Notes: generated by a model from the sequence alone, not told the origin. A stretch of DNA of 64,000 bases from Candidatus Parcubacteria bacterium (GCA_963814275.1 CAWFCE010000001.1:387307-451306), one strand, 5' to 3'. Positions 2,801 through 56,604 are shown, numbered from the stretch's first letter. Made by a program: numbers and translations.

Positions 2801-3133
<333 letters not shown>

Positions 3134-3193: not shown

Positions 3194-3269
3194 AACAGAT
3201 AACAGATAATAGATAACAGATAACAGTTTTTCCTGTCGTCTGTTATCTGTTATCTGCCGTCTGTTATCT
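3194..3269. repeat. Intergenic word hairpin (AACAGAT words)
   Basis: (AACAGAT)n at 3194-3226, loop TTTTTC, then complementary (ATCTGTT)n at 3233-3269. Confidence 0.8.
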
Positions 3270-3274
3270 AAAAT

Positions 3275-4396: not shown

Positions 4397-5920
<1,524 letters not shown>

Positions 5921-27055: not shown

Positions 27056-27265
27056 ATTGACAAATTGTTCATAATTAATTACTTTATAACGATAACAGAA
27101 TAGAAGACAAAAATCAAGGAAGATAGAAAGGAGAAGTTCGTGTTGGAATCGAATAAGATCGTATTGGACGAAGTGTGCAGCGTTCCCAAAAAAGCAGGCA
27201 GTATGCCCTGCTTTTTTTCTGTAGTTTTTTTTGCTATAATGGGAGAAATAGTTATATTTATAATT

Positions 27266-28306
27266 ATGGAAAATAGTCCGGCGGTGGCACAATCAAATAG
27301 CGATAAAGTCATTAAGCTTTGGCAGCGGCTTAAGGCTCAGGGGACCGATAACGGCACTTTATGCGAAATCATCAAATCCATTCCCCAAATCCGCATCGAG
27401 GCCTGGGCCTTGCTCAAAGAACAGTCGGCCACCAACAACGACTTGCGTTTTATAATCGAGCACGTACCGGAAATGAGGGCTGATGCCTGGGCGTTGCTCA
27501 AAAGCCGGCGGCCGAGCGCTATGGAGCTCAAGAATATAGTGGAATATGTACCGGAATACAGGGCCGAAGCTTGGAAATTGTTTTTAAAAAGCGACCCCGG
27601 CCGCTTGGAGCTGCGCGAAATAGTACGATATGTCGCACCGCTTAGGCGCGAAGCCTGGAAGAAGTTGCAAAAGTTAAAACCGATGGTACAGGATTTTTTC
27701 TATGTTGCCCGGTTTGTCGAGGAATTGCGGGAGGATGCCTGGAAAAAACTCCTCAAATCCAAACCTGAAGTAAATGACCTTCTAAGCGTAATGAAATATA
27801 TCCCGTCACTTAAGGACAAGAGCTGGGAACAATTCAAGCGGATCAGGCTGAGTAATGATATGCTCCGGCGCGTAATTATCGAGGTGCCGGAGCTCCGGCG
27901 CGAGGCGTGGGAAGAGCTTAAGCGCCAAGGCGCGTCGAACAATGACCTTTGTCTTGTTATGCGCGACATAGAGGACCTGCGCCATGAAGCCTGGGCGGAA
28001 TTCTTCAAGCGACAGCCGACGAACGAGGACCTGCGCTTCGTGATGAAGACAATTCCGTCATTGCGGGGGGAGGCCTGGCTTAAGCTTAACGACCAGGGTG
28101 CGACGAATGACGACCTTTGCTTTATTATCAAGGATGTGCCGCGGCTTCGCGTCGAAGCCTGGGATAAGCTCAAAAACCAGAATCCGAATATGAGCGAACT
28201 ACAGTTTGTGATCAAATATGTCGATGAATTGGCGCCGGAAGCCCGCGATATAATGAATACCCGGAATCAGGTGACCTTGAACGAGCTTAAGAAATACAGC
28301 ACTTGA
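27266..28306 (+). CDS. Hypothetical protein made of 11 tandem 28-aa helical repeats
   Basis: ORF 27140-28306 trimmed to the ATG at 27266. Repeat consensus xxDLxxVhxxVPxLRxEAWxxLxxxxPxx. Confidence 0.6.
   Translation: MENSPAVAQSNSDKVIKLWQRLKAQGTDNGTLCEIIKSIPQIRIEAWALLKEQSATNNDLRFIIEHVPEMRADAWALLKSRRPSAMELKNIVEYVPEYRAEAWKLFLKSDPGRLELREIVRYVAPLRREAWKKLQKLKPMVQDFFYVARFVEELREDAWKKLLKSKPEVNDLLSVMKYIPSLKDKSWEQFKRIRLSNDMLRRVIIEVPELRREAWEELKRQGASNNDLCLVMRDIEDLRHEAWAEFFKRQPTNEDLRFVMKTIPSLRGEAWLKLNDQGATNDDLCFIIKDVPRLRVEAWDKLKNQNPNMSELQFVIKYVDELAPEARDIMNTRNQVTLNELKKYST
27353..28276 (+). repeat. 11 x 84-nt in-frame coding repeat (28-aa units, no indels)
   Basis: By hand alignment, each unit has EAW or an equivalent at the same offset. 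924 nt = 11 x 84. Confidence 0.8.
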
Positions 28307-29030: not shown

Positions 29031-29828
29031 TTACGACTGTCCGATTACGAAATTCATTACTAGGTATCCCACCCCGAAGGGGGATTCGTAGGACAAGGGG
29101 CGCGGTTCGTAGTCCAGGCCGTCCAGTATTCCGAGCAGGATCAATATTGATTTGAGGCCGCATTCGCTCGCTTCACTCACTAGATCGGGGGGCAGAGCAG
29201 CGATAGCAGCGGTGTTTTTCGTCTTGAGAAGCTCTTTCAGTTTATTGTCGAATTTCTTGCCGCGGGGTGAGTATCCGCCCGGGGCATCTTTGGTCAGGCG
29301 GTGGGACAAATCGCCGGAAGCGATCACCGCCACCCGTTCCCGCGTTTTCATAAGCGTCGGCTGGAGTTGGCGGCCGAATTCGAGATGGGCCGAATTGTCG
29401 AGGCCTGAGTAGGTAAGGGGGATTATGCGCAGATTTTTGAGCTTTTCCGCCAGCATAACCAGGGGGATAGCCGCGCCATGATCAAGCGCTTCGCTCGTAT
29501 AGAATCTCAGCAAGCCGTTGGATTCGATCGGCGCCTTAAGCTTTTGCGCCAGTCCGGGATGGCCGTCCCATTCCGGTTTGGTGCCGAAATCGCCAAATTC
29601 CTCGAAATTCGCCTGATAGCGGAAATTTTGATTCAAGGCCATAGCTGAGTCCAGAATGGTTCCGTGCGGTGATATGATCAGGATGGTTTGGATCCGTTTG
29701 GCTTTTATTTCATCAGCCAGTACGGCATAGGCCTGGATGGTGTTTTTCAGGCGCTCCCTGTTCTCTTTGCCGATTGCCGGTATCAGTACCGGCGGATGGG
29801 GGACAATAGCGGCGAATTTTATGGACAT
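29031..29828 (-). CDS. LigB/Memo-superfamily protein (class III extradiol dioxygenase subunit B-like)
   Basis: Contains FAAIVPHPPVLIP, ILIISPHG and ASGDLSHRL. Confidence 0.6.
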   Translation of the reverse strand: MSIKFAAIVPHPPVLIPAIGKENRERLKNTIQAYAVLADEIKAKRIQTILIISPHGTILDSAMALNQNFRYQANFEEFGDFGTKPEWDGHPGLAQKLKAPIESNGLLRFYTSEALDHGAAIPLVMLAEKLKNLRIIPLTYSGLDNSAHLEFGRQLQPTLMKTRERVAVIASGDLSHRLTKDAPGGYSPRGKKFDNKLKELLKTKNTAAIAALPPDLVSEASECGLKSILILLGILDGLDYEPRPLSYESPFGVGYLVMNFVIGQS

Positions 29829-29901: not shown

Positions 29902-31500
29902 CTAGGGATTTAATATACTATTGATTTCCTGCTGTAGCGCTTCATCGTCGGTAGTCGTGGCTACCGGAGTATCGATTATTTCCGGCGTGCCGGAGGCGGC
30001 GGTGGTTTCGTCTTCTGTAGTAGTGGCGGCTGTTCCTTCCTGGACTATGCCGTCTTCATCCGTATATATCTGGCTGATCGGTTGGCCTTCGGGATAGAGG
30101 TCGAATATTTTTTTCGGTACGGTAATGATATTGCCCCATTTGTATCCCAGGGCCTCGAAGATCGCACCGCTCGTGAAGGCGCGGCGGCTGCCATTGTCGA
30201 TAACGAAGACGCCCGGGCCGCCATCAAGCTTGATGAGCTCGCCGTCGCCGAAGATCGCCGGTTCGACTGTCTTGTAGCTGGCCAATTTCTCCGGGGTTTC
30301 CGGTATTATCACCCGGCCGCGGAACTTAGTCTGCAAAAGTACTTTATCCCAGAGCGGAGCTTTGGTTCCCTCAAATACGTAGAAGATGCCACCGGTCGAT
30401 TTATCCTGCAGGAGGGCTCCCATCGGGTAGCTTGATGTAGCGGTTATCGGCTGGCCTTCCTTATATACATTGATATCGTCCCAGCCGGCATTGACGATCT
30501 CTTCCGGGTTAATGCCGATCATCCGGAGCGCTTCCTGGCTATTGAAGCCGCGGCGGGTGTCGTCAACCAAGAGATATACCGTGCCGCGCGGACTGCGGAC
30601 GAGCGAATATTGCGCGAATTTGATCGGATCGCCCGTGGGGTATTTGTCCAGGTCGGATTGAGCTACGCTGACTATCTTATTCGGGTCATAGCGCGAGGTG
30701 AGAGCGCCCTTGGAGAGGAAAGGCCGGCGGTAGCCATTCTGGATAAGCCATACCCCGGGTTCGCCCCTGACCTGCATCAGGGTGTTGTTGGGGTATTGGC
30801 GGGTGAAATAGCGGTTCCAGATATTATAAAAATTATAATTTCCGTTATAGACATGCGGCGTATAGTTGTAGAGGGCGGCGGTCGCCTGGTTTTTGGGCTG
30901 GATGTTCATATCCGGCTTGTTGGTATTGGATACGCGGTAAGAATTACCCTGTTTATAGGTATAGAGCCGCGGATTTTGGAGATAATCGAAGAACTGGAGC
31001 GAAGCCGAATTGACCTGCTTGCCGAATCCGCGCCAATGGTCGTTGCAGCCGCCGCCGTCCGGACAGCCGTAGCCGGTCGCCCAGTCGAGCTGGCTCTGCT
31101 TGGGGCTTTTTTCCTCGATCAGGCTTTGCTCTTTTTGCAGAAGGACGATCAGGAATTTGGGGTTGATCGTCACCGGCTGGCACTTCAGGCGCCTTTCCGC
31201 TTCGGTCGGAGTGTCGGATAGGCTTACGCCGTCGCAGTCCCAGTTGTGGGCGGCGTCATAGATGATCTCGGCCGCGGTCTTCATTTTCCCTTCAAAATTG
31301 GGAAAGCTGTGGTAGGCGATATAGCCGCCCTTGGACTTGAGAAAAGCGTCGATTTCCTGAAGGGTCATTGAGTCAGCTTCGAGTATCTCCTGGTCGCTCA
31401 GGATGTAATTGGGGTCAAAACCGACCGCGAGCGTAGTGCCGGCGAGCGCAAAAATACCGATTATAGCGAAAATAGCGGAGTAAATCGAATGTTTTTTCAT
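29902..31500 (-). CDS. Secreted hypothetical protein (532 aa)
   Basis: N-terminal signal/anchor MKKHSIYSAIFAIIGIFALAGTTLA and a Thr/Asp-rich C-terminal tail. Confidence 0.55.
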   Translation of the reverse strand: MKKHSIYSAIFAIIGIFALAGTTLAVGFDPNYILSDQEILEADSMTLQEIDAFLKSKGGYIAYHSFPNFEGKMKTAAEIIYDAAHNWDCDGVSLSDTPTEAERRLKCQPVTINPKFLIVLLQKEQSLIEEKSPKQSQLDWATGYGCPDGGGCNDHWRGFGKQVNSASLQFFDYLQNPRLYTYKQGNSYRVSNTNKPDMNIQPKNQATAALYNYTPHVYNGNYNFYNIWNRYFTRQYPNNTLMQVRGEPGVWLIQNGYRRPFLSKGALTSRYDPNKIVSVAQSDLDKYPTGDPIKFAQYSLVRSPRGTVYLLVDDTRRGFNSQEALRMIGINPEEIVNAGWDDINVYKEGQPITATSSYPMGALLQDKSTGGIFYVFEGTKAPLWDKVLLQTKFRGRVIIPETPEKLASYKTVEPAIFGDGELIKLDGGPGVFVIDNGSRRAFTSGAIFEALGYKWGNIITVPKKIFDLYPEGQPISQIYTDEDGIVQEGTAATTTEDETTAASGTPEIIDTPVATTTDDEALQQEINSILNP

Positions 31501-31637
31501 ATTAAATGGGGATTATTGGCTTAAGTTAAATTGCCTGTCGACAATATGGATATTATACAATATTCGGGGTTAGAAAACAAATAAAATAGCCGCAGACTGA
31601 TCTTTCTGTCTGCGGCTATATCTTCAGTTGAGAGAGG

Positions 31638-32804
31638 TTAATCTCCGGTATATTGCGGCAAACTGCCGCGATTGCCGTTATAAGCGGAATAAAAAGTTAG
31701 ATCCGCCATGTCGATCCTCCCGCTGGCATTCATGTCGCCCAGGACAATCCCGGTAAACGGTAACAGGGGGTAGAGATATTGAGAAGGATATTGGTCGATA
31801 GTCGGCCGGCTGATAGATTTAAAAATGTTTCCGGAAATTACCGCTAAGTCGGCCATGTTGACATATGAATCGCGCCAATCGATACCGTCGTTGTAGGTGC
31901 CGACCAGATTGCCCACCAGATGCCAGGCATAGGTTATGGTCCCTGTTTGCCCGGTATCCAGATTGACAGAACGCACATTGGCGAATACCATTCGGTAGGC
32001 GAATGGTATATCGTAGTAAATGTTGTTGGTGTTCGCGTCAAATGACGCGATGTCGCCAAGCGCTTCCGGTTCGTGGGCCCTGTTGTAGGTCGAAAAGAGA
32101 TCGACCTGATAAGTATAATGGGCGAAATCCATGTTCTCTGCCGGATCTTGGACACCGATCAGCAAGCGGTGCGGTCCGCCATTGCGGTAGACCATACCGA
32201 TACGGGTGTCGGGCAAGGGATACCCGATATTAGCGGTGAATACCTCGAAATAATCCACCATCCGGTCTCCTGCCTCGTTAATCAGGACGATCTGGATTTG
32301 CCATGAGCCGGGCGCCAAATCGACGAAATCCTCGAACACGTTTTGATCGAAATCAAGGGTGTGTTCTGTCGTATCGATCTTGCCGTAATTTAGTCCGATC
32401 TTCGTAATATCATCCGGATGTTCAAGGAATTCGATCCAGAGCCCATCCGGCATTTCTTCAATGCGGATTTTTCCATGAAGAAATTTTAATCCGTCTTCAT
32501 AAACCACTATTTCATTGGAAAATCCACTTTCGTTGGCATCTGCATCATGGGCAGTTAATTTGAAGTAGTATACACCGGAACTACTCAACGTAATAACCGT
32601 AACGGTTTCGGTGCCAACACTGTCCCAGATCGGAAGATACGTGCCGCCCATGGGCTTCATATACAATGTATAGCCGGCCAGATCCGGTTCGGTGTTCGCG
32701 TCCCAGGCAATGGTCACAGGGAAGCTGGCTTCAGCTGCCTGGATCATGCCAAGCGCGAGCAAGGGCGCCATAGCCATTAACATTATGATTCGTTTTCTAA
32801 CCAT
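31638..32804 (-). CDS. Secreted protein with FN3-like N-terminal module and C-terminal dockerin-like duplicated segment
   Basis: Signal peptide ...GMIQAAEA. TIAWDANTEPDLAGYTLYMKP is FN3-like. The C-terminus has DWRDSYVNMADL and GDMNASGRIDMADL, which are DxNxxGxIDxxDL-type. Confidence 0.55.
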   Translation of the reverse strand: MVRKRIIMLMAMAPLLALGMIQAAEASFPVTIAWDANTEPDLAGYTLYMKPMGGTYLPIWDSVGTETVTVITLSSSGVYYFKLTAHDADANESGFSNEIVVYEDGLKFLHGKIRIEEMPDGLWIEFLEHPDDITKIGLNYGKIDTTEHTLDFDQNVFEDFVDLAPGSWQIQIVLINEAGDRMVDYFEVFTANIGYPLPDTRIGMVYRNGGPHRLLIGVQDPAENMDFAHYTYQVDLFSTYNRAHEPEALGDIASFDANTNNIYYDIPFAYRMVFANVRSVNLDTGQTGTITYAWHLVGNLVGTYNDGIDWRDSYVNMADLAVISGNIFKSISRPTIDQYPSQYLYPLLPFTGIVLGDMNASGRIDMADLTFYSAYNGNRGSLPQYTGD

Positions 32805-33208
32805 TTTTTGTCCTCCTTCCGTTTTGAAATATTTTTGTCTTATTTCCTCTCAAACTGAGTTTTCAATGATCTGTTTTCCTCCCTTGTGGATATAATATCA
32901 CACAAATATTAAATTTCTAATTTTGATGAAAGATATATATCCAGTAAACAGATGACCATAACACCAAACTTTAATTATGTCAATCAGTATTGTCAAATAA
33001 ATATTATTTAATATTGGTTAAAATATATTTTTGAGATACCCCTTGACAGATTGTTAATAATTTGTTAAGGTTCACTGTTTAACCATAGAAATAATAATGG
33101 TATCAATAAAAAATGTTTAATATTAGAAAATAATTAATTAATATAATATAAATTTTAATTCAATTACTATTTATTTTTGAATTATTAAAATTATTTAATA
33201 GAAGGTTT

Positions 33209-36200
33209 ATGAAAAATTTACAAACAGTAAAAAACTTTTCAAAGAATTATTTTTTGCAGGCGGCCTTGATCCTAATTTTTGGCTGTCTCATTTTGCCCGG
33301 CGTATCGTATGCCGCCAGTATCACGACCGATCAATCAAACTATACGGTCGCTCCCGGTTCGACTTTTGTCATTCCGGTGGTACTAACTGGTGCCAACGAT
33401 ATTCCTACGGTCGGCTTCGACCTGGGCTATGACCCGGCCGTTTTGACCTATGTCAGTATGACCCCGGGTTCTTTTATTGATGGCGGCTGCGCCTTGTTTG
33501 CCGACGCCAATGAAATCATGCCCGGTACCGTATCGGTGGCGATAAGCCGTATGTGCGGAACCGGTGTTACCGGAACCGGCGTCGTTGCCAATATCACCAT
33601 GCAAGCCGGCAATGCTCCCGGAACCGCTGATATAACTTTCGCCAATGCGGGTGTGTGCTATATGGATACTTCCTGCGATACGGCGACTTTTACCGGCGCG
33701 ACCGTAACGGTCCAGGCGGCGGTGAACAATCCGCCGGTTATAAGCGGAGTGACTGCCAACGCCGGCAACAACAGCGCGGCCGTTAACTGGACAACCAATG
33801 AGGCGGCTACCAGCCGCGTCGATTACGGTCCGACCGCCAGCTATGGCAGCCAAACGGCGCTTAATTCAACTTTAAGTACCGCTCATTCGGCAACTATTTC
33901 CGGCTTGAGCGAAAATACTACATATCATTACCGCGTCAGATCGGCCGATGGCCAGGGCGCGGAATCTGTCAGTGCTGATTATACTTTCACCACGGGTACC
34001 AGCCAAAACACGGTTCCGTTCGCGGGCAGGGTGGTTCAGGTGAAAGACAGCCGCACCTATTTTGATTTCGACTCTAAGCTTGACGCCAACTGGGAGTTGT
34101 GGCAGGAATTCGGCCTGACCCGCCAATACGAATTTTACCGCGCCTACGACGCCCCCTTCGGTTTCGGTTCGTATTCCGGCGCCGCGGAAGCGCTCGGCTT
34201 GCCGCAGAACCGCTGGCAGGCCGGCATCGTGACCAAGAACCGTTTTCACGTCGACAACGGAACTGATTACAATCTGTTGTTTTATGCCAAGGCTTCGGCC
34301 AACGCGGCGGTGAATCTGTACCTGCAGAACCCCACTACCTATCAAGCGGTGACCGATGTCAAAACTTTCGCTCTGACGGGCGACTGGCAGCGTTATATCA
34401 TGAACTTCGATCCCAGCCAAACGGTTGACGCGCTGGTCACTTACAGCTTCGGCGATCTGCCGGCCGGTGTGACGGTTTATTTCGACGGTTTGTCGCTTAT
34501 GAAGTCGAGTATGTCATTCAATACCCCTACCGTCAAAGGTAATATCGGCGATACCAACAAATCATTAAGCATTTCCAATATCGGTATTTATAGCACTGAC
34601 GACATCGAGGTCGAACTGCCGTATTACGATCCGGTCACCGGACAGGCAACGACCAAGCGCTATCACCCGGTCAGCATGACCACCGGCGATGTCAAGATCA
34701 ATATGCCTGAAGGCACTTTTTCCGGCGTCGGCAAGGTCTATGTCCTGGACAGCGAGATCGGCCAGTTCAACTATGACGTTTTGACCAGGATCACAAACAT
34801 TTATCCCAGCCAGGTAAGGGCGGATGAAGATGTGACGATCGTCGGCAGCGGTTTCGATCCGCGGATCAACGAAGGCAAGATCAATGTGCTGGTGCGCACG
34901 ATCGATACCAGCGGTAAGACCTACGAACATTGGCTCGAACCGCACACGATCGATTCTCTTTTGAAACAGGTGACTGTCACCCTGCCGACCGGTATCGTAA
35001 ACGGCAACCTCTATGTCCGGACGAATTTCTTCGATAAAGACGATAAAAACGTTGTCAACACATCGAACACATTGGCTTACAAAGTCAAACCGGTTATTTA
35101 TAACGTGCAATGGAGCGAACGCGGCTACGAACAGGTTGGCGATAAGCTTCTGATCTACGGCAAGGGCATCAGCAATGCCCCCAAAGTCAATTTTTACGCC
35201 GAAGACGGAACCAAGATCGAAACCAAAGCGGCCAAAGTCGTCGACATTTACAGCGATGAAGTGATCGAGGCGGTTTCTACCAGCAAAAGCAATGTCTATA
35301 AAGTTACGGTCGTAGCCGGCGGTGTCGAATCCGACCAGGAGCAGGCGCTGGAATTCATGGCCAAGCCGAAATTGACCAGTATGATCACCAAAAATAAACG
35401 CCGGCTCTATGCCAGCAACGAAGATATCAATGCCGCCAAAGTCGGCGAAGAGATCACTGTCCGCGGTTTCGGCCTGAAGCCGGGAACCGATCCGATCATC
35501 GTTGAATTCCAGGGCGTAGGAGGCAGGATCCAGACGCAAATTTCCGCTGATGCCGTCGCTACCGACAACCAAAGCCTGAAGGTGATGATACCCTCCGGCG
35601 TAGTCAACGGATATATGAATGTGCAGGTAAACGGCGAAGTTTCGAACAGCCTGCCGCTTGAGATCATACCGACCATCGAGTCGATCACGCCTGATCCGGT
35701 CGTACCGGGACAGGATGTCGCGATCCGCGCCCAGGGCGTGGGGAATAACCTGAACCTGGCCCGGGTGAAATTTTCGCTCGGAAACGGTTCTGAAGTGACG
35801 GTTGTACCCAGCGCGATCAATTATACCCCGCAGTATACGATGGTATACGCGAAAGCGCCGTTGTCCCTGCCCAACCAGAGCGGAACTATCCGTCTGCAGT
35901 ATGACAATTGGACTGATGATTCGAAACCGAATCTGAATGTCTATCCGACCATTACTAACGCCTCGTTCAATACCGATACCAGCATCCTGTCGATTCGCGG
36001 CTATGGATTCTCGATCAAACCGCTTGAAAACAAGATCACCTATATGTACGCGGACGAAAGCAGGACCGTGATCAATCCGAAAGTAAAATTACTCGGCGTT
36101 TATCCGACCGAAGAGGGACAGGAAATCCGGATCCAGGTGCTGGACGACTACCACTACGGTTGGGTGCGGGTACAAGTGGGCGACCAGGTGTCCAACGACG

Positions 36201-36433
36201 CCAACTTCGGCCCGGTATCCATCAGCCGGATTGCCCGCCGCGTCGAATACGTGAAAAGCCTTGACCGGGTGATGGGCGTGCTCTATATCAGCGGCTATAA
36301 CTTCGGCCCGAACGGCGGAGTCAAAGTTGGTGATAATTGGGCTGATGTCCATTACCGCTCCGACTTTTTCATAATCGCGGTGATCGACCAGCAATATGTA
36401 TATGATAACCCGGTTCTCGTTGCCAAGGAATAA
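33209..36433 (+). CDS. Large surface protein: cohesin-like module, FN3, then IPT/TIG-like repeats
   Basis: Signal/anchor, then APGSTFVIPVVLTGANDIPTVGFDLGYDPAVLTYVSMTPGSF (cohesin-like). FN3: TTYHYRVRSADGQG. Repeated Ig-like segments follow. Confidence 0.6.
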   Translation: MKNLQTVKNFSKNYFLQAALILIFGCLILPGVSYAASITTDQSNYTVAPGSTFVIPVVLTGANDIPTVGFDLGYDPAVLTYVSMTPGSFIDGGCALFADANEIMPGTVSVAISRMCGTGVTGTGVVANITMQAGNAPGTADITFANAGVCYMDTSCDTATFTGATVTVQAAVNNPPVISGVTANAGNNSAAVNWTTNEAATSRVDYGPTASYGSQTALNSTLSTAHSATISGLSENTTYHYRVRSADGQGAESVSADYTFTTGTSQNTVPFAGRVVQVKDSRTYFDFDSKLDANWELWQEFGLTRQYEFYRAYDAPFGFGSYSGAAEALGLPQNRWQAGIVTKNRFHVDNGTDYNLLFYAKASANAAVNLYLQNPTTYQAVTDVKTFALTGDWQRYIMNFDPSQTVDALVTYSFGDLPAGVTVYFDGLSLMKSSMSFNTPTVKGNIGDTNKSLSISNIGIYSTDDIEVELPYYDPVTGQATTKRYHPVSMTTGDVKINMPEGTFSGVGKVYVLDSEIGQFNYDVLTRITNIYPSQVRADEDVTIVGSGFDPRINEGKINVLVRTIDTSGKTYEHWLEPHTIDSLLKQVTVTLPTGIVNGNLYVRTNFFDKDDKNVVNTSNTLAYKVKPVIYNVQWSERGYEQVGDKLLIYGKGISNAPKVNFYAEDGTKIETKAAKVVDIYSDEVIEAVSTSKSNVYKVTVVAGGVESDQEQALEFMAKPKLTSMITKNKRRLYASNEDINAAKVGEEITVRGFGLKPGTDPIIVEFQGVGGRIQTQISADAVATDNQSLKVMIPSGVVNGYMNVQVNGEVSNSLPLEIIPTIESITPDPVVPGQDVAIRAQGVGNNLNLARVKFSLGNGSEVTVVPSAINYTPQYTMVYAKAPLSLPNQSGTIRLQYDNWTDDSKPNLNVYPTITNASFNTDTSILSIRGYGFSIKPLENKITYMYADESRTVINPKVKLLGVYPTEEGQEIRIQVLDDYHYGWVRVQVGDQVSNDANFGPVSISRIARRVEYVKSLDRVMGVLYISGYNFGPNGGVKVGDNWADVHYRSDFFIIAVIDQQYVYDNPVLVAKE

Positions 36434-36525
36434 GCGGCGTGCTATACTGGAATGATTGAAAATATAATATAACTACAATTGCCCCGCGGTAAATAACCGT
36501 GGGGCAATTGGGTATTTAGAAAAAT

Positions 36526-39500
36526 ATGATGTTTTTTAACCGTTTTTTAACCAACCGTAAACGCGCATTTATCATTATGCTTATGGCGGTGTTATCCATA
36601 ACTGTTTTGCCTCAGGTAAGTTTAGCGGAAGGATATGATTTTGACGCCGCGACATATTCGGTTGCCCCCGATCAGGACTTTACCGTGGGCGTAATTTTAA
36701 CGGATATGCAAAATGTTAATGGTATTGGCTTTGACCTGGTATTTGACCCTGCCGTAATATCTTTTGTATCGATGGATGTTGATGATTTATTTACTGATAC
36801 CGGTACTTGCCCTTATTTTCCCGCCGCCAGCGAAATAGCATCCGGAACGGTTGCCGTGGCGATAGCACGTTTGTGCGCAACCGGGGTAAGCGGCACTGGT
36901 GAAGTGGCGGTTTTTCATATGCATTCCAGCACAACACCGGGCAGCACTGCAGTTGACTTCAGCGGCCAAGTTATGGTGTGTTATCCTGATACATCCTGCA
37001 ACTACCTGGTTACCACGGATTCAGCTACCGTTAATGTCGTATCGCAGGATACCACCGCGCCGACCCTGGCTCAGGTCGCCCCGGTCCCAAGTCCGACCAA
37101 TGATACCACACCCAGTTATACTTTTTCCTCGAGTGAAGCGGGAATTATCAGTTATGGCGGCGATTGTTCTTCGGTCACGACCGATGCTATCGCCGGTGAT
37201 AATAATATTACCTTTGAAACTCTTTCCGCGGGTGTCCACAATAATTGCACTATCAGTGTTACTGATGCGGCCAACAACCAAAGTTCAGTTTTAAATGTCG
37301 GTTCATTTACGATCGACACATCTGCGCCGACCCTGGCCCAGGTAACGGCAGTGCCCAGTCCGACCAATGACACTACGCCGAATTATACTTTTTCCTCGAG
37401 TGAAGCCGGTACGATCTCATATGGTAACTGCCAGTCGGGTACTACGAATGCCGTAGCCGGCAGCAATACAATCACTTTTAATACTCTTTCCGCCGGAACC
37501 CATTCCAACTGTACGATTAGAGTAACTGATGCCGCCGGCAACCAAAGCTCGGTATTGTCTGTCAACTCATTCACGATCGACACCACCGCGCCGACCCTGG
37601 CTCAGGTCACCCCGGTTCCCAGCCCGACCAAGGATAATACCCCGGATTATACTTTTTCCTCGAGTGAAGCCGGTACGATCGTATATGGCAATTGCCAGTC
37701 GGGTACTACGAATGCTGTAGCCGGCAGCAATACAATCACTTACAATACTCTTTCCGCCGGAACCCATTCCAACTGTACCATCCGGGTGACCGATACAGCC
37801 GGCAACCAGAGCTCAGCATTGAGCGTAAACACTTTTACGATTGATACTACCAAGCCGGTAATCACAGTAACGGGCGCCAATCCGGTATCGATTAACAAAG
37901 GTCAGATATATTCTGATGCCGGCGCAACCGCCAGCGATAATTATGACGGCAATCTGACCGGTTCGATCGCAACCGGCGGTTCGGTCAATACTGATTTGGT
38001 TGGTGATTATACTATTTCCTATAATGTCAGCGATAGCTCAGGTAACACAGCTGACCAAAAGACACGTTTAGTCCATGTGGTCGATGGGGCCAAGCCGGTT
38101 ATTACCCGTCTGGGCTCAAATCCGGTCAATGCAGAGGCTAAAACTTCATACACCGATGCTGGTGCCACGGCCAGCGATGATGTCGATGGGGATATTACCG
38201 GTAATATTATAACGACCAATCCGGTAAATATAAATTTACTCGGCAATTATACCGTGCGATATAACGTATCCGATACCGCCGGCAATCCGGCTGACGAAGT
38301 TACCCGAACGGTGCAAGTGGTCGATACGACCAAGCCGGTTATTGCTTTGAACGGCGACAATCCAATGACGGTCGCTTACGGCAGTTCATACGTCGAACCA
38401 GGAGCCAGTGCCAGCGATAATTACGACGGTGATCTGACCGGTTCGATCGTTATTGGCGGTGATACGGTTGACGAGAACACTTCCGGTACATATAACGTGA
38501 CATATAACGTCATGGATACCTCAGGAAATTCGGCCGCTCAGGTTACGCGTGAAGTTACAGTGGGTAATCCTACTCCGGAAATTAATTTCGATCAGACGGA
38601 CTATCCGACAGATATAGCGACGAGCGTAGATGTCAGCTTGATTTTGGGTAGCGCGACAGATGTCGCGGGCGTTGGTTTTAATTTGAATTATGATACTGCG
38701 TTTTTGCGTTATCTTGGTTATACGGAAGGGGATTTTATTGGCACTGGTACCTGTTTTGGCCTGTCACTGGTTGATGAAACCGCCTCCGGTACGATTAGTG
38801 TATCTCTTAACCGTTTTTGCGGTACCGGCGTAACCGGTTCGGCCGGTCTTTTATCGCTAGAATTCCTGGCCAGCACATCGCCCGGAACGAGTGATTTGAC
38901 CCTTGGCCAGGCGGAAGTCAGTTATCCTGATACGAGCATCGGGACAGTTTTGGCGGATAGCGCCACTGTTACCGTGTCCTTGCCGGATACGACCGCGCCA
39001 GTCCGCTCGGGCGGCGCTCCGTCCGGCGAGTTGGCTGCCGGAACGACCCAGACGACATTGCAATTAACGACCAATGAGATCGCCGAGTGCCGCTATTCGA
39101 CCACGGCCAATACCGCCTTCGATACTATGACCGCTCTATTTACCAATACCAATTCCACTGCCCACTCTAAAACCATAAGCGGTTTGGGCAACGGCAATAG
39201 TTATAAATATTATATTCGCTGCCAGGACGGCAATGGTAACGCCAATTCTGACGATTACGCGGTCTCATTCTCCGTCAAATCCGCTTCATCCGGCGGCGGC
39301 GGTGGCGGCGGTGGCGGCGGCGGGGGATCATCCGGCGGAAGCAGCGGGGGAGGAACTTCCAGCGGGGGAGGAGGCACTACAGCTTCAGCCCCACCGGTAG
39401 TGACCGGAGCGTCATTAACCAAACAGGGAAAACAAATCACCATAAACTGGACCAACCCGGCCAGCGGATTGTACTCCAATATTATAATCATCCGTACCAC

Positions 39501-40338
39501 TGAAGCGATTGCCAGCCATATGACCTATGAAGCTATAGCCGGATTCGGTGAGAGCGTGTATGAAGGAACCGGTACGACTTACTCCGACCAGAAACTCGCG
39601 AATAACCTTACTTATTATTACGCCATCTTTACCACCAATACGGCCGGCCTATTTTCCGATCCGGTGATCTTGGTGAAGGCGGGCACCAGCGATAAGCCGG
39701 GCGGATCCGATACGAAGCCGACCCCGCCCGGAAAGGACAAAAAATACCAGAATTTGGGCGGCGTGGGGAGTGATATCGTCGAACAAGTCAGTGTCCAGGA
39801 AGCGGACGAGATCCTGTCGCAAACCCAGCGTATCGACCTCAATGACACCAGCAACCGCCTCTATCTGTTCATCGTCGGCCGCAGCCCGCACGATCTGAAA
39901 GACAACGAGAAATACGCGATCGCCTATTATATCCAGGACGGTACGCCGACGACCATCTCGCTGGGGGCAGGGGAGCGTACCGGCGTATTGAATTCCTACT
40001 TAGCGGCTTTCAACAAACTGCCCCGGCAGGAATCAGAATGGCAGGACGTGATCAAGATCGCCAACGGCCGCTGGCCGACGGAGAGGAACGAAACCATGGA
40101 AAAAAACGCCAAAGACAGTGTGTTCTCCGTTATCTATAAGAGGCACGCCGATGTAACGAACCAGAATGACGACGCGGCAGTGACGGTCATCGCCTACGGT
40201 CTCCGTCCGGCGAACCGCAACCTGGACAGCGAGAAAAACGCAATCAGGATCTACAAAGCGATTTTCGGCCACAACCCGGTCGAAGCCCAGGAATGGGATA
40301 TTGTGAGGGCAATCGCTTACAGCGGAGCGACGAGATAG
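36526..40338 (+). CDS. Giant surface protein: two cohesin-like modules, Ig-like and DUF5011/HYR-like repeats, FN3, Gly/Ser linker
   Basis: First cohesin-like block: VNGIGFDLVFDPAVISFVSMDV. Second cohesin-like block: VAGVGFNLNYDTAFLRYLGYTEGDF. There are three KPVITxxGxNP...DAGATASDxxDG units, and a poly-G/S tract at 39290-39375. Confidence 0.6.
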   Translation: MMFFNRFLTNRKRAFIIMLMAVLSITVLPQVSLAEGYDFDAATYSVAPDQDFTVGVILTDMQNVNGIGFDLVFDPAVISFVSMDVDDLFTDTGTCPYFPAASEIASGTVAVAIARLCATGVSGTGEVAVFHMHSSTTPGSTAVDFSGQVMVCYPDTSCNYLVTTDSATVNVVSQDTTAPTLAQVAPVPSPTNDTTPSYTFSSSEAGIISYGGDCSSVTTDAIAGDNNITFETLSAGVHNNCTISVTDAANNQSSVLNVGSFTIDTSAPTLAQVTAVPSPTNDTTPNYTFSSSEAGTISYGNCQSGTTNAVAGSNTITFNTLSAGTHSNCTIRVTDAAGNQSSVLSVNSFTIDTTAPTLAQVTPVPSPTKDNTPDYTFSSSEAGTIVYGNCQSGTTNAVAGSNTITYNTLSAGTHSNCTIRVTDTAGNQSSALSVNTFTIDTTKPVITVTGANPVSINKGQIYSDAGATASDNYDGNLTGSIATGGSVNTDLVGDYTISYNVSDSSGNTADQKTRLVHVVDGAKPVITRLGSNPVNAEAKTSYTDAGATASDDVDGDITGNIITTNPVNINLLGNYTVRYNVSDTAGNPADEVTRTVQVVDTTKPVIALNGDNPMTVAYGSSYVEPGASASDNYDGDLTGSIVIGGDTVDENTSGTYNVTYNVMDTSGNSAAQVTREVTVGNPTPEINFDQTDYPTDIATSVDVSLILGSATDVAGVGFNLNYDTAFLRYLGYTEGDFIGTGTCFGLSLVDETASGTISVSLNRFCGTGVTGSAGLLSLEFLASTSPGTSDLTLGQAEVSYPDTSIGTVLADSATVTVSLPDTTAPVRSGGAPSGELAAGTTQTTLQLTTNEIAECRYSTTANTAFDTMTALFTNTNSTAHSKTISGLGNGNSYKYYIRCQDGNGNANSDDYAVSFSVKSASSGGGGGGGGGGGGSSGGSSGGGTSSGGGGTTASAPPVVTGASLTKQGKQITINWTNPASGLYSNIIIIRTTEAIASHMTYEAIAGFGESVYEGTGTTYSDQKLANNLTYYYAIFTTNTAGLFSDPVILVKAGTSDKPGGSDTKPTPPGKDKKYQNLGGVGSDIVEQVSVQEADEILSQTQRIDLNDTSNRLYLFIVGRSPHDLKDNEKYAIAYYIQDGTPTTISLGAGERTGVLNSYLAAFNKLPRQESEWQDVIKIANGRWPTERNETMEKNAKDSVFSVIYKRHADVTNQNDDAAVTVIAYGLRPANRNLDSEKNAIRIYKAIFGHNPVEAQEWDIVRAIAYSGATR
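37048..37842 (+). repeat. Three tandem coding repeats of 264-267 nt (88-89 aa Ig-like units)
   Basis: Units start at 37048, 37315 and 37579 (DTTAPTLAQV...FTI). Units 2 and 3 are nearly identical at the nucleotide level. Confidence 0.85.
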
Positions 40339-40685
40339 GTGCCGGGAATCGGAGAACCCCTCGACTCGGCTCGGGACAGGCGTAAATCGGGTCAGGCCTT
40401 GAATTGTCAGGTTTAATTTATGTGTTTATAGTTATCGGCATAACTTAATCCCTCAATAAAACCCCAAACATTAATAAGTTTGGGGTTTTGATATTTTAAA
40501 AATCTGTTATTGCGTTGTATTTATTGACAAAAATCACGCATCACATATATACTAATAATTGTAAATTACCGGCAAATTCCTAATACCGGTATATCTAAGG
40601 CAAATTTTAACTATTTTTTAATAGAATTTGTGTTATAATGGTATTAGAATACAATTAAAATTATCCACAAGGAGGTACCTGAGCT

Positions 40686-42269
40686 ATGATTAGACGAATT
40701 TTAAACATTTCGATCGCCCTCCTAATAATGATTACCGCGGCCTGGCCTTTGGCGCCGGCGGCGGCTTATTATTTCGACGGCGGTAATTTTAACTACGGTT
40801 TCACCAAACTGGGAACCGATTATCGCAAAATCAACAATGAGGAATACGACATTGTGGGACAGCGGACGAATTTTGGCGTCAATGACCATATCGTGGTCCT
40901 GACCAAATTGAACGATATCAGCAACATCGACCGTTTTCGCTACCGCCATGAAGTGAGGAACAGGAATGGCGGAGTGGTGCGTTCCTGGGATTCGCCGGAA
41001 TACCGTCCGGGCGGCGATTCCTGGAAAGTGAATTATACCTGGCATGATTTCGATCGCTTGCCGGCCGGCGACTATGATATGCGCGTACTGGTCAGTATCA
41101 ATAATGGCGGCTTCCAGGAGATCGATACCCAGCGCTTTACGGTCGGGGATGCTTACAAAAATTACGACAACAGCCACTACAATTATAATGATAATTATTA
41201 TAACAATAATTATAATAATTATCATAACAATAACGGAGAGTGCTATGGATACAATTGCGCCGTAAATGCCGGTTATTATTATCCGACTTACGCGAATTCC
41301 CCGCAGTATGAGCTGGACTGGCTCAAAGTCGGTACACAGGCAAGGAATATCGGTTCCTGGCGCTGGCAGCTGAATAGCGACAAATCCAGCTTCACCACCG
41401 GCGACCGGATCGTAGCCATGACCGCGCTCAAAAATATCCGCTATACCGACCAGTTCCAGGTCAAACACGAGATCTACCAGGGTAGCCGCCTGGTTTACAG
41501 CAAAATTTCCCCGATCCAATACCCGCACGGCGCTTATTGGGAGGGGAATTACGCTTGGGCCGATTTCGGCACCTTGCCGTCCGGCAGCTACCAGGTTAAA
41601 TCCTATGTCAGCGTTAACGGCGGCAGCTACAGCTATCTGACCGCCAAGACCATCAGTGTATCAGGCGCCACCAACGCCAATTATTGCCGGGACAACCGCT
41701 GTTACCCGAATTACAAAGAAGCTTACCATTACGACTGGACGTACGCGGATTACAACGTACGGCAAATCAGTACTTATAATTTCACCGTCGATAATCCGAA
41801 AACCAGCTTCTATACCGATGAACGGGTCATGGTGCTGACCAAGCTGACAGCTTTGAGCGGCATCGACACTTTCCGCGTTAAGCAGGAGCTCTACCGCGAT
41901 AACACGATGATCAAAAACCTGATATCAACCACCCGCACGCCGCATTACCAATACTGGGATTACAACTACACCCAGGCGGATTACGGGTTGTTGCCTGCCG
42001 GCTCATACAGCGTCAAAGCGTATATTCAGATCAATGACGGTTCATACCGCTATCTGGGCAGCCAGAGCTTCACGGTAAAAGCCAGGTATAATTATCAATA
42101 TAGCTATCACCCCGACAGCTACAATTACAACAACGATAACAATTACAACTACAATAATTATTACAGCCAGCCGTCATACCAATATGGGGGAACGCAGTTC
42201 AGCACGAATGCCGGTAATTATCAGAATTATCCATATTCACCTTACGGAACTTACGCTTATTACCGATAG
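40686..42269 (+). CDS. Secreted protein with three roughly 90-aa domain repeats and Asn/Tyr-rich linkers
   Basis: AAGGAGG lies upstream and a signal peptide is present. The repeats share the pattern F..D.IV.LTKL....D.F..K.E...........Y....W...Y.W.DFG.LP.G.Y.V. N/Y tracts such as NYNDNYYNNNYNNYHNNN are present. Confidence 0.6.
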   Translation: MIRRILNISIALLIMITAAWPLAPAAAYYFDGGNFNYGFTKLGTDYRKINNEEYDIVGQRTNFGVNDHIVVLTKLNDISNIDRFRYRHEVRNRNGGVVRSWDSPEYRPGGDSWKVNYTWHDFDRLPAGDYDMRVLVSINNGGFQEIDTQRFTVGDAYKNYDNSHYNYNDNYYNNNYNNYHNNNGECYGYNCAVNAGYYYPTYANSPQYELDWLKVGTQARNIGSWRWQLNSDKSSFTTGDRIVAMTALKNIRYTDQFQVKHEIYQGSRLVYSKISPIQYPHGAYWEGNYAWADFGTLPSGSYQVKSYVSVNGGSYSYLTAKTISVSGATNANYCRDNRCYPNYKEAYHYDWTYADYNVRQISTYNFTVDNPKTSFYTDERVMVLTKLTALSGIDTFRVKQELYRDNTMIKNLISTTRTPHYQYWDYNYTQADYGLLPAGSYSVKAYIQINDGSYRYLGSQSFTVKARYNYQYSYHPDSYNYNNDNNYNYNNYYSQPSYQYGGTQFSTNAGNYQNYPYSPYGTYAYYR

Positions 42270-42561: not shown

Positions 42562-43173
42562 ATGGGTAATCAACTTACCAAACGCCAGCGGGAGATCCTT
42601 GATTTTATCACCGATTTCACCGGAGAAAAGGGATACGCGCCCAGCATCCGCGAGATCGGCGAGCATTTCGGATTGACTTCGCCGGCGACAGTCCATGCCC
42701 ATCTGGAAAATCTCAAGAATAAGGGATTTCTCAAAAAGGGCTACAACGAGGCCCGGTCCGTCGAGCTCAATCCGGTGTCAGTCAGCTGGTCGCAGGCTTT
42801 TGAGCTGCCTTTGGCCGGTTTGATCACTGCCGGGGAACCGATCGAGGCGATCGAAGAAAAAGAGACTATTGCCGTACCTGCCAATTTCGTGTCCGACCGC
42901 GCCAACAGCTATGTGCTCAAAGTCCGGGGCGAATCAATGATCGAGGACGGTATCCTGGACGGGGATTACGTGATCGTCGAGCGCAACCCATCGCCGCATA
43001 ACGGCGATATCGTGGTGGCGCTCCTCAACAACGCTTACGCCACCCTCAAGAAATTCTACCGGGAAACCAACCGCATCCGCCTCCAGCCGGCAAATTCCAG
43101 CATGAAGCCGATCTACGCCAAGGACCCGCTGATCCAGGGGATTGTGCGCGGCGTGATCAGGCGCTTCGCGTGA
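42562..43173 (+). CDS. lexA: LexA repressor (S24 peptidase)
   Basis: Winged-helix N-terminus: LTKRQREILDFI...GYAPSIREIG. VRGESMIEDGILDGDYVIVE contains the catalytic Ser, and LKKF contains the Lys. Confidence 0.95.
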   Translation: MGNQLTKRQREILDFITDFTGEKGYAPSIREIGEHFGLTSPATVHAHLENLKNKGFLKKGYNEARSVELNPVSVSWSQAFELPLAGLITAGEPIEAIEEKETIAVPANFVSDRANSYVLKVRGESMIEDGILDGDYVIVERNPSPHNGDIVVALLNNAYATLKKFYRETNRIRLQPANSSMKPIYAKDPLIQGIVRGVIRRFA

Positions 43174-53083: not shown

Positions 53084-54168
53084 ACTTAGTTTCTAGAATT
53101 TAACGCAACACTATTATTAATTAGCTCATTGAATACTTGATAGGGTTTTCTGAATCCCAATGCCGCCCGGGGGCGTCCATTAAGCAAGTCCTGCACTTTT
53201 TTCACTTCATATCTGGATACTTTGTTGAAATCGGTTCCTTTGGGGAAAAATTGTCTGATCAGGCCGTTGGTGTTTTCGTTGGTGCCCCGCTCCCAAGGGC
53301 TTCTCGGATGGGCAAAATATACTTTGACGCCGGTGATGCCGGTAAACAGCTTGTGCTTGGCCATTTCCCGCCCTTGGTCGTAGGTCAGCGTCAGTTTCAT
53401 CTGCTGGGGCAGTTTTTTCACTTCCTTGGCGAAGGCTTTGGCCACCACTTCGGCGTCTTTGCTTTTGACCGGGATGAGGATAGTCGTGCGGGTCGTGCGC
53501 TCCACCAGGGTGCCAAGAGCCGAGCGATTGTACTTGCCAATGATCAGATCGCCCTCCCAGTGACCGGGGATGATCCTGTATTCAACCTCTTTCGGCCGCT
53601 CTTCGATTGAGAGCATATCCTCTATTTTCCGCTCCATTTTGACGCCCCGGGCTTGTTTATACCGCCTTTTATGGTTACGGCGCAAGCAGGCAGTCAGCTC
53701 TTTTTTAAGCGAACCCCTGGGTAACACGTAAATGTAGGTATAGATCGCTTCGGGCGATATATGCATAGTCATATCTAGAGGATAATCTATTTCCAGCTCT
53801 TCGGCAATCTGGCGGGGCGACCATTTCTTTTTCAGTTTCTTTCTGATATACGTCCACAGCTTCGGATTGTCGTTCAGTTTATGCTTGCCGGATTTCCTTT
53901 TAGCGGCATTCCGCCTGGCCCGATTCTGCGCCCTAACGGCCCGATAGGTATATTTATTGCCGCCACCAGCGTTGATTTCCCGACTGATGGTACTGACGTT
54001 CCTGCCCAAGATACCGGCAATCTGACGGAAAGAGCATTTTTGCGAGAGTAAACGACTGATTTCCTCCCGCTCTAAATCGCTTAATCTTTTAAAATTTGAC
54101 ATAGGAATCTAACATAGCATTATTGGCGCTTCGCGCCAAATATGTTGCGTTAAATTCTAGTCTCAAAC
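53084..54168 (-). mobile_element. IS30-family insertion sequence, copy 1 (1085 bp)
   Basis: Bounded by identity with copy 2. Terminal inverted repeats contain CTAGAATTTAACGCAAC at both ends. Confidence 0.85.
53086..54102 (-). CDS. IS30 family transposase
   Basis: 338 aa with an HTH (SFRQIAGILGRNVSTISREI) and a DDE core (IPGHWEGDLI). It has Tyr where copy 2 has Asp (EVEYR versus EVEDR). Confidence 0.9.
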   Translation of the reverse strand: MSNFKRLSDLEREEISRLLSQKCSFRQIAGILGRNVSTISREINAGGGNKYTYRAVRAQNRARRNAAKRKSGKHKLNDNPKLWTYIRKKLKKKWSPRQIAEELEIDYPLDMTMHISPEAIYTYIYVLPRGSLKKELTACLRRNHKRRYKQARGVKMERKIEDMLSIEERPKEVEYRIIPGHWEGDLIIGKYNRSALGTLVERTTRTTILIPVKSKDAEVVAKAFAKEVKKLPQQMKLTLTYDQGREMAKHKLFTGITGVKVYFAHPRSPWERGTNENTNGLIRQFFPKGTDFNKVSRYEVKKVQDLLNGRPRAALGFRKPYQVFNELINNSVALNSRN

Positions 54169-55317: not shown

Positions 55318-56604
55318 ATGATAATCGGCATTGATGCCAGCCGCGCCAATCGCGACCATAAGACCGGAACCGAATGGTACTCTTATTACCTGATCCGGGA
55401 GTTGGCCCGGCTGGATGCGGAGAACAAATACATCCTTTATACCGACAAACCGCTGGTAGGCGGTTTGATGGATTTGACCGTGGATCCGTTCGGACCGGGC
55501 TGGAGCCCCTCAGAGATCGAATACGACCGTTATGGGTATCAGATCATCTGTTCGCCGCACGATAATTTCCGGGCCAAAACCCTCAAGTGGCCGTTTACGT
55601 ATTTCTGGACCCAGGGCAGGCTATCGCTGGAGATGATGAAGCGGCCGGTCGATGTCCTGTTCGTGCCCGCCCACACCCTGCCGCTGATCCATCCCCGCCG
55701 TTCGGTAGTGACTATCCATGACATCGGCTACGACCGCACGTTTGCGGCCTATGAGAATCTGCATATCATAAAAAGCAGCGGCCATAGGCGGCGATTCCTG
55801 AATTTGCTCACCTGGCTGTTCACCCGCGGGCGCTACCGGGCCACCGCAGTCGATTATTTGCGGTGGTCGACGGAATTCGCCCTGGACAAGGCCGATCGGA
55901 TCATCGCGATATCGGAATACACCAAGCGCGACATCGAACAGTTTTACCGCGCCAAGAGCGAAAAGATCCGGGTTGTTTACAATGGATTCAATCAATCGCT
56001 TTACCGGCCGATCAATGACCGTGAGATCGTGGATAAAGTTTTGGCGAAATACGGCCTGGAACGCCCGTATCTATTCTATATCGGCCGGATCGAACGCAAG
56101 AAGAATATTCCCAATCTGATCGAGGCCTTCGCGATCCTGAAGGAGAAGAATCCGCAGATCAAGGAAAAGCTGCTTTTGGTCGGCGATGCCAGCTATGGTT
56201 ACGACGAATCCAAATATATGATACGCGAATTCGACCTGGTTAACGACGTGATCTTGCCCGGCTGGATCGATGAAATTGATATACCCTATATATATAACGG
56301 CGCCACGGCATTCGTATTTCCCTCTCTTTATGAAGGATTCGGCATTCCGCTGATGCAGGCAATGGCTTGCGGGGTGCCTGTTGCCGCCTCGGACGTGACT
56401 TCATTGCCCGAGGTCGCCGGCGGCGCGGCCCTGTTCTTCAATCCCAATTATTCACTTTCCATAGCCGATGCCCTGGCCAAGGTGATAACCGATAAAAAAT
56501 TGCGCGAAGAGCTTATCAGAAAGGGGATAGAACGGGCGAAGCATTTCAGCTGGGAAAAGACCGCGGAGAAAACGCTAGATATTATAACTTATAAATCAAG
56601 TTAA
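55318..56604 (+). CDS. Glycosyltransferase, GT4 (GT-B) family
   Basis: C-terminal [32 protein letters not shown] (EX7E region). 428 aa. Confidence 0.85.

Follow-up and report, generated by a model that had tools for sequence, protein, structure and literature searches.

The window analysed here is a stretch of 64,000 nucleotides from a Candidatus Parcubacteria bacterium (GCA_963814275.1, CAWFCE010000001.1:387307-451306), and the system in question is encoded by an island of five neighbouring genes at positions 29902-42269. Two of the encoded proteins carry three cohesin modules between them, and another ends in a dockerin-like tail that is conserved in its family and whose gene is paired with cohesin genes in related loci. 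We propose that this locus encodes a non-cellulosomal surface assembly of the cohesin-dockerin type in a Patescibacteria cell of Falkowbacteria-like affiliation, a reading that we regard as evenly poised between right and wrong.

The five open reading frames (ORFs) encode protein 1 (29902-31500, minus strand, 532 residues), protein 2 (31638-32804, minus strand, 388 residues), protein 3 (33209-36433, plus strand, 1074 residues), protein 4 (36526-40338, plus strand, 1270 residues) and protein 5 (40686-42269, plus strand, 527 residues). An earlier interpretation made from the DNA alone, here called the sequence-only reading, had placed the ORFs at these same coordinates, and all the peptide strings that it quoted are found in the translations. 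It had also taken the five proteins to be secreted or surface-located. On direct reading, the N-terminus of each protein does consist of a basic n-region, a hydrophobic h-region and an Ala-rich end, as in a signal peptide.

In the proposed assembly, protein 4 would be a scaffoldin that is exported by means of its signal peptide and displays two cohesins spaced by Ig-like modules, and its C-terminal domain, which is specific to the candidate phyla radiation (CPR), would hold the scaffold at the cell envelope. Protein 3 would add to this display a third cohesin, again of the same subtype, and a carbohydrate-binding module (CBM), and the tail of protein 2 would be a divergent dockerin that plugs into the cohesins of proteins 3 and 4. 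This binding may depend on calcium. The resulting surface arrays of FN3 and CBM modules could then mediate adhesion to a partner cell or its glycans; that adhesion or host attachment is the purpose is suggested by the lifestyle of the host and the domain content.

Cohesin modules and architecture of proteins 3 and 4

A cohesin is a module of about 140 residues. Protein 3 contains one such module (33314-33724, plus strand, residues 36-172) and protein 4 contains two, designated A (36628-37050, plus strand, residues 35-175) and B (38575-38988, plus strand, residues 684-821). All are assigned to the Pfam family PF00963 (Cohesin), the gathering score of which is 24.1 bits: the module of protein 3 scores 50.1 bits over residues 46-159, and cohesins A and B, each scanned alone, score 26.9 bits and 23.1 bits, the last being marginally below the cut-off. 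With a local hidden Markov model (HMM), the scores of the three modules are 153, 155 and 139 bits, respectively. In addition, a cohesin profile (A4) was constructed from the three window modules and nine modules from related loci (n = 12) and compared with PDB sequences. It matched 17 chains, and 17 of the 17 are cohesins. The best match is 1g1k_A (E = 1.4e-9, profile positions 7-133 of 140), and the matches include the non-cellulosomal cohesin of Archaeoglobus fulgidus (2xdh_A) and the NagJ cohesins of Clostridium perfringens (2jh2 and 2ozn). The modules that the sequence-only reading had called cohesin-like are thus recovered as cohesins in all three cases, both by the HMM scans and by a profile that finds cohesins exclusively.

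Cohesin A of protein 4 is 42% identical to the cohesin of protein 3, and cohesin B is 36-39% identical to the other two; because of this mutual identity of 36-42%, the three window cohesins are assigned to one subtype. The cohesins of the window and of the scaffoldin in the related locus L086 share a conserved Cys pattern, R.CGTGV.G.G ... C.PDTSC, which suggests disulfides.

Protein 3 consists of a signal peptide, the cohesin, an FN3 module, a CBM_4_9 module and a beta-rich C-terminal region of about 640 residues. The FN3 module, which had been claimed earlier, is present according to Pfam. The CBM_4_9 module (34211-34444, plus strand, residues 335-412; PF02018, 28.5 bits against a cut-off of 25.9) had been missed, and it is the only carbohydrate module among the island proteins. 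Neither Pfam nor PDB sequence searches support the IPT-like repeats that had been suggested for protein 3, and the C-terminal region has no PDB relative by sequence. When protein 3 was used as the query, the search of GTDB genomes for related loci yielded no relative.

Protein 4 is, to judge from its module order, a scaffoldin-like protein: a signal peptide is followed by cohesin A, three Big_13 units, three surface-Ig units, cohesin B, an FN3-like module, a poly-Gly stretch, a second FN3-like module and the CPR-specific C-terminal domain. The three near-identical Ig-like units noticed before are 88 residues each and correspond to the Big_13 repeats of Pfam; Tandem Repeats Finder (TRF) detects two of the three as a 264-bp period with 83% matches. 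The units previously described as DUF5011-like or HYR-like do exist, but their identity is PF16403 (Bact_surface_Ig-like; three stretches, 177.5 bits). The NCBIfam scan of the island proteins returned nothing relevant apart from the LapB and OmpL47 Ig-repeat models.

No glycoside hydrolase domain was found in the five island proteins by the Pfam and NCBIfam scans, as the sequence-only reading had stated, and its description of the system as non-cellulosomal agrees with this result and with the CPR affiliation of the host (see below). A cellulosome was considered and rejected because of this lack of glycoside hydrolase domains.

The C-terminal domain of protein 4 (39748-40335, plus strand, residues 1075-1270) ends in ...VRAIAYSGATR. 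It has no Pfam family, and no PDB relative was found by sequence. With a profile of the last ~196 residues of protein 4 (A5), 410 proteins were found, of which the best 120 have E<1e-60. All are named 'hypothetical' and come from Falkowbacteria, Magasanikbacteria, Parcubacteria or Patescibacteria; by this distribution, the domain is a Patescibacteria-specific family. A typical member has about 335 residues and consists of a signal peptide, an FN3-like module and the C-terminal domain; one such member sits among housekeeping genes. Given this typical composition, protein 4 can be described as a common type of secreted CPR protein to which cohesins and Ig spacers have been added at the N-terminus. 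The domain is plausibly a cell-envelope anchor, for which it is a candidate. It also contains an internally duplicated motif, Y..AF..LP....EW.DVIKIA / Y..IF...P....EWD.VRAIAY.

The dockerin-like tail of protein 2

Type I dockerins consist of two tandem F-hand repeats of about 22 residues, each comprising a 12-residue calcium loop and a helix, and the calcium ligands occupy loop positions 1, 3, 5, 9 and 12. Protein 2 consists of a signal peptide, three FN3-like beta-sandwiches and a C-terminal helical module that is dockerin-like (31641-31916, minus strand, residues 297-388). In alignments A1, A2 and A3, this module is the best-conserved part of the family.

The second segment of the module, DMNASGRIDMADLTFYSAYNGN (31671-31736, minus strand, residues 357-378), is a canonical F-hand segment in which a calcium-loop motif precedes a helix. 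Within it, DMNASGRIDMADL (residues 357-369) is the sole match to the pattern D-x-N-x-[DNS]-G-x-I-D-x-x-D-L in the six frames of the window, and the loop residues are D357, N359, S361, G362, I364, D365, D368 and L369. Ligand positions 1/3/5/9/12 are therefore occupied by D, N, S, D and D, an acceptable set, and the consensus of the family at this site is D.N.DG.VD..D. The first segment, GNLVGTYNDGIDWRDSYVNMADLAVISGNIF (31821-31913, minus strand, residues 298-328), is atypical; it is conserved as GNI.GT.NDG....S.V(D/N)..D(L/Y) and is followed by a helix. Loop 1 ends at D319 and loop 2 begins at D357, with 37 residues in between.

A structural model of protein 2 was built with AlphaFold2 on an alignment of 23 sequences; a single-sequence model, with a predicted local distance difference test (pLDDT) value of 33, was discarded. 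The mean pLDDT of the alignment-based model is 82.1, and that of the tail is 85-97. The predicted tail helices cover residues 317-325, 336-341, 352-356, 366-375 and 383-386, so that a helix directly follows each of the two MADL segments (317-325 and 366-375), in a dockerin-like manner. A Foldseek search of the PDB with the whole model returned only chains with tandem or triple FN3 modules, which confirms the FN3-like body and is uninformative about the tail.

The family to which protein 2 belongs is small and divergent. With protein 2 as the query, a word-indexed search finds homologs of the N-terminal FN3 module only. By exhaustive phmmer searching with residues 101-388, however, a small family with 26-31% identity is found, the alignments of which reach the C-terminus. 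Most members have about 380 residues. A word-indexed search with profile A2 finds only short forms of about 185 residues, and a metagenome scan with the same profile finds three loci only, all short or carrying a short form. The C-terminal ~100 residues are the most conserved part of the family, with the consensus Y.L.GNI.GTYNDGV....S.VD..DL ... LPFT...R.D.N.DG.VD..DY. The question of whether the dockerin-like residues are conserved in homologs, which the sequence-only reading had raised, can be answered for the 23 members: three residues (L296, D319 and D357) are invariant and three more (G298, N299 and G362) nearly invariant.

Scanned alone, five of 12 family members match Dockerin_1 at E<=1, with a best E of 2.4e-6, and two short members carry a precomputed PF00404 match. 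The best PDB matches of the family profile are dockerins, namely 2y3n_B (E = 1.6e-7) followed by 4fl4_A, 1daq, 2mte, 3ul4_B, 2ccl_B and 1ohz_B, and EF-hand proteins rank after them. Note that only profile positions ~66-99 align to PDB sequences, and that both repeats of the true dockerins map onto that one segment. These results bear on the explanation that the dockerin resemblance is a chance occurrence of a short acidic motif without biological meaning. The match in protein 2 is indeed only about 20 residues long and lies below the Pfam threshold. However, the F-hand pattern arose in 37 of 20,000 shuffles of the island proteins (a chance expectation of about 0.2%), the motif is conserved and even more canonical in remote homologs, and dockerins head the PDB matches of the family profile; we consider a chance origin highly improbable.

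The short family members, of about 185-190 residues, consist of a beta-sandwich and the tail. One of them, P0062 of Candidatus Scalindua japonica (L085, 10001-10555; 184 residues), appears in NCBI under the name 'hydrolase of the metallo-beta-lactamase superfamily'. This name looks like a mis-annotation because the predicted content of the protein is a beta-sandwich and a dockerin-like tail.

Gene pairing and alternative readings

Relatives of protein 2 were located in further loci, five of which, including the window, are informative (the window, L083/L084, L086, L087/L088 and L082); the contigs of L089-L091 are too short. In L083/L084, the relative (P0058, 382 residues) has as its divergent neighbour a protein of 1199 residues with four cohesins; in L086, P0059 (385 residues) is paired with a protein of more than 500 residues with two cohesins; and in L087/L088, P0060 (410 residues) is paired with a protein of 847 residues with two cohesins. 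The fifth locus, L082, contains P0057 (376 residues) with a transposase upstream and a tandem family paralog downstream. The long form of about 380 residues is thus divergently paired with a giant multi-cohesin gene in four of the five loci. Genes for cohesin-bearing and dockerin-like proteins are adjacent in the window and in three related metagenome loci, and the pairing has survived the divergence of the proteins involved to 25-35% identity. The sequence-only reading had raised the possibility that the modules on these neighbouring proteins interact; the conserved divergent pairing in related loci lends independent support to the idea that the two genes work together.

The proteins of 1199 residues (L083) and 847 residues (L087) are probably orthologs of protein 4, because all three have the same C-terminal architecture; the two relatives have an FN3-like module ('CRYSTT...YYIRCQD'), poly-Gly, a second FN3-like module and a domain of ~200 residues ending in AYSGATR. 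In these orthologs, two cohesin subtypes alternate, in the order alpha-beta-alpha-beta in L083 (1579-5178) and alpha-beta in L087 (5725-8268).

Because L087 also carries an ortholog of protein 1 (29-1597, 59% identity) as well as LigB/Memo, Def and Fmt, it is regarded as part of a related genome in which the gene order has been rearranged. Immediately downstream of the protein 4 ortholog, this locus encodes a secreted protein of 236 residues (5013-5723, minus strand) that resembles an adaptor scaffoldin, with a cohesin (33.7 bits) and a canonical Dockerin_1 module (36.8 bits, model positions 2-55 of 57). Since the two modules occur together on this protein, cohesin-dockerin pairing is evidently in use in this lineage. 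No counterpart of the protein was found in the 64-kb window. In the window and in L086, all cohesins are of one subtype, and no dockerin-type module other than the atypical tail is in view; L087 combines two cohesin subtypes with two kinds of dockerin, one canonical and one atypical. Cohesin subtypes and dockerin types thus loosely track each other in number from locus to locus, which is suggestive only. Co-variation between dockerin-like modules and cohesins across loci was also considered but was not accepted as evidence, since the distances are about the same for all pairs.

In L082, the tandem paralog (2062-3357, 430 residues) lies directly downstream of P0057, and the transposase upstream is a fragment. 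This arrangement implies that the protein 2 family can expand locally.

The cohesins may alternatively bind no dockerin and act as generic beta-sandwich spacers or adhesin modules, possibly with host ligands, in which case the locus would be an adhesin gene cluster. Non-cellulosomal cohesins without a known partner are widespread (Peer et al. 2009, as cited in PMC9012536), and proteins 3 and 4 are rich in the Ig, FN3 and CBM modules that are typical of adhesins. Nevertheless, a cohesin and a canonical dockerin occur on one protein in the sister locus L087, the dockerin-like gene is conserved as the adjacent partner, and the cohesins are N-terminal and repeated within the protein, as in scaffoldins. 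We consider this explanation improbable.

Several observations weigh against the proposed cohesin-dockerin assembly, some at the level of the tail and some at the level of the locus. When aligned on its D-L, the first segment of the tail, DWRDSYVNMADL, is one residue short and is without the ligands at positions 1 and 3. In register with D319, loop 1 positions 1/3/5/9/12 are I, W, D, N and D, and the conserved upstream residues N299, T303, N305 and D306 might substitute as ligands. Against Dockerin_1 (PF00404), with a gathering score of 22.9 bits, the tail scores 16.9 bits alone and the whole protein 12.0 bits, both below the cut-off, and the match spans model positions 2-21 of 57, which corresponds to one repeat. 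The first repeat is aligned by none of Pfam, the PDB profile search and hhalign; in the hhalign comparison of A2 with the canonical dockerin of L087, one loop is aligned, with 6.5% probability. Of the duplicated calcium loop that the sequence-only reading had described, then, the second segment fits the motif but the first does not, and a dockerin is recovered by HMM scanning in some family members but not, at the Pfam cut-off, in the window protein.

At the level of the locus, the pairing could partly reflect shared ancestry rather than selection, because the four syntenic loci come from related organisms. The flanks of the short family forms, in Scalindua japonica and others, contain no cohesin in the sequence covered (up to 10 kb), so the module is not always linked to cohesins. 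Finally, because L087 has a canonical dockerin, the cohesins may prefer canonical dockerins encoded elsewhere.

The last point leads to a different explanation, which holds that the cohesins are real but have canonical dockerins elsewhere in the genome as their partners, and that the tail is a calcium-stabilised F-hand module with another role, such as folding, stability or the binding of another ligand; the pairing would then reflect the co-regulation or inheritance of surface-protein genes. The recognition of one repeat below the Pfam threshold, the canonical dockerin of L087 and the short forms without cohesin neighbours all fit this explanation, and the window represents only 64 kb of a contig that is at least 458 kb long. 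Within the window, however, there is no canonical dockerin motif anywhere; the pairing persists at 25-35% protein identity while other neighbours are rearranged; and in L086 and the window a single cohesin subtype is accompanied, in view, by the atypical module alone. We consider this explanation unlikely, but it is the main rival of the proposed assembly.

The irregularities of the tail have a parallel among characterised dockerins. Dockerins of Ruminococcus flavefaciens (groups 1 and ScaA) have long linkers, loops of 11 or 13 residues and sometimes one unrecognisable repeat, and at least some dockerins of this species (ScaB and CttA) have been shown to bind cohesins (PMC2930009). The long linker and the unrecognised repeat of protein 2 are comparable to these features. 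On the other hand, R. flavefaciens belongs to another phylum, the sequence relationship to the tail is limited to the F-hand, and the modules sit on enzymes and scaffoldins of plant cell-wall degradation, unlike those of the window. Given that such irregular loops and linkers occur in dockerins, 'dockerin-like' is the most fitting term for the protein 2 tail, in which one loop is canonical and the other expanded; that the window protein belongs to PF00404 is not established.

A more specific form of the proposed assembly, which we hold only tentatively and think rather unlikely, is that it represents a lineage-specific system of Falkowbacteria-like CPR bacteria in which a new dockerin class docks FN3 subunits onto CPR-anchored multi-cohesin scaffoldins. 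The new class would combine a beta-sandwich with a single canonical F-hand and an expanded first loop, and the structure would serve the attachment of an episymbiont to its host. Lineages that have two cohesin subtypes would possess two orthogonal specificities, one from the canonical and one from the atypical dockerins, by analogy with types I and II of the cellulosome.

Host, neighbouring genes and known systems

The window is an ordinary segment of a bacterial chromosome, with genes for F-type ATP synthase, GroEL, ParB, DnaE, Fmt and Def. Its GroEL is 74-82% identical to those of metagenome-assembled genomes of Candidatus Falkowbacteria and other Patescibacteria, and for this reason the host is identified, by sequence comparison, as a Falkowbacteria-like bacterium of the Patescibacteria/CPR. 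It is probably a host-dependent or host-attached cell.

Promoters and terminators were called as consensus matches only. The spacer of 404 bp between the divergent genes of proteins 2 and 3 (32805-33208) contains promoter-like sites on both strands (minus, 32996-32968 and 32983-32955; plus, 33071-33098), and it is possibly a shared control region. Between the genes of proteins 3 and 4, no terminator-like site was found. Downstream of protein 4 lies a terminator-like hairpin (40457-40490), and protein 5 is preceded by a promoter-like site with 11 of 12 consensus matches (40524-40553). Protein 5 is probably a separate transcription unit, and its membership in the system is unsupported. In view of these promoter-like and terminator-like sites, proteins 1 and 5 are probably neighbours rather than components of the system.

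Protein 1, which has no Pfam, NCBIfam or PDB match, contains a Cys-containing N-terminal domain and four repeats of about 50 residues of the type GVWLIQNGYRRPF.... A LigB/Memo-like gene neighbours protein 1 in the window and its ortholog in the L087 genome, and we regard protein 1 as a conserved neighbour that is not specifically tied to the cohesin genes. Protein 5 is a secreted, Asn/Tyr-rich protein with three beta-rich repeats of about 115 residues, and its low-complexity linkers, very rich in Asn and Tyr, correspond to DNA tandem repeats at 41179-41233 and 42121-42165. Its only Pfam match is a weak one to the TcfC E-set. By sequence, neither protein 1 nor protein 5 has a PDB relative, and self-BLAST of proteins 1, 3 and 5 revealed no internal repeats at the thresholds used.

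The island is flanked by genes of cytoplasmic type, namely the LigB/Memo-like gene (29031-29828) and an ORF that is LexA-like by reading of its translation only (42562-43173). Further upstream, an ORF of 388 residues (27140-28306) encodes about nine tandem helical repeats of ~37 residues with the pattern ...L(R/K).(E/D)AW..L....; it lacks a Pfam family and overlaps, on the opposite strand, part of the annotated start of the deformylase gene. Elsewhere in the window, two IS30-like transposase copies (53084-54102 and 56699-57717; HTH_38 and rve, 338 residues each) lie in direct orientation, 3615 bp apart. They are near-identical, with the first 496 nt identical, and bracket two or three genes, including one for a family 4 glycosyltransferase (GT4) at 55318-56604; the pair looks like a composite-transposon arrangement.

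Among known systems, the type II X module-dockerin (X-Doc) of Clostridium thermocellum CipA is similar in one respect: it, too, involves a multi-cohesin scaffoldin and a partner in which an Ig-like beta-sandwich precedes a two-helix calcium module, a likeness of architecture only. The PDB matches of the protein 2 family profile include the X-Doc chains 2b59_B, 5g5d_B, 3kcp_A and 4wi0_B; the CipA X-Doc bound to the SdbA/OlpB cohesins is represented by 2b59 and 3kcp. Unlike that system, the window has neither enzymes nor the cellulose-specific CBM3, and the first repeat of its tail is not alignable.

Cohesin and dockerin modules outside cellulosomes are known from a range of bacteria and archaea (Peer et al. 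2009, cited in PMC9012536). Examples are the cohesin/dockerin pair of A. fulgidus, the NagJ-type toxin complexes of C. perfringens and scaffoldin-like proteins of anaerobic methanotrophic (ANME) archaea, and roles in cell-cell contact or surface assembly have been proposed for ANME archaea and Omnitrophota (PMC9012536 and PMC10066038). As in these systems, the window has cohesins on secreted non-cellulolytic proteins and no glycoside hydrolase enzymes in the locus. It differs in its CPR/Patescibacteria host, in a partner module with one recognisable F-hand and in a scaffoldin that ends in a CPR-specific domain instead of S-layer homology (SLH) or sortase signals. In Omnitrophota, non-cellulosomal dockerins on giant ORFs have been proposed to be adhesins (PMC10066038; bioRxiv 10.1101/2023.11.21.568195). 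The likeness here is an ultra-small, host-dependent bacterium with dockerin-type surface modules and a proposed role in adhesion or predation. However, the Omnitrophota proteins carry many dockerins in one giant ORF with no adjacent cohesin scaffoldin, whereas in the window a separate small protein stands beside cohesin proteins. Our literature search found no paper that describes a cohesin-dockerin system in CPR/Patescibacteria.

Three things are new here: a family of divergent dockerin-like proteins, the conserved pairing of this family with cohesin scaffoldins, and a CPR-specific C-terminal domain, the last of which defines an unannotated family of more than 400 proteins. Little is known, to our knowledge, about host attachment in CPR/Patescibacteria, the majority of whose surface proteins lack annotation. 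If the proposed assembly is real, it would provide clonable parts for attachment tests, namely three cohesins, one docking module and a candidate anchor domain; orthogonal cohesin-dockerin pairs are, moreover, useful building blocks in synthetic biology. The dockerin-like family would show how far dockerins can drift while their genomic partnership is kept, which bears on their detection in metagenomes, and cohesin-dockerin assembly would extend beyond polysaccharide degradation into a major uncultured radiation.

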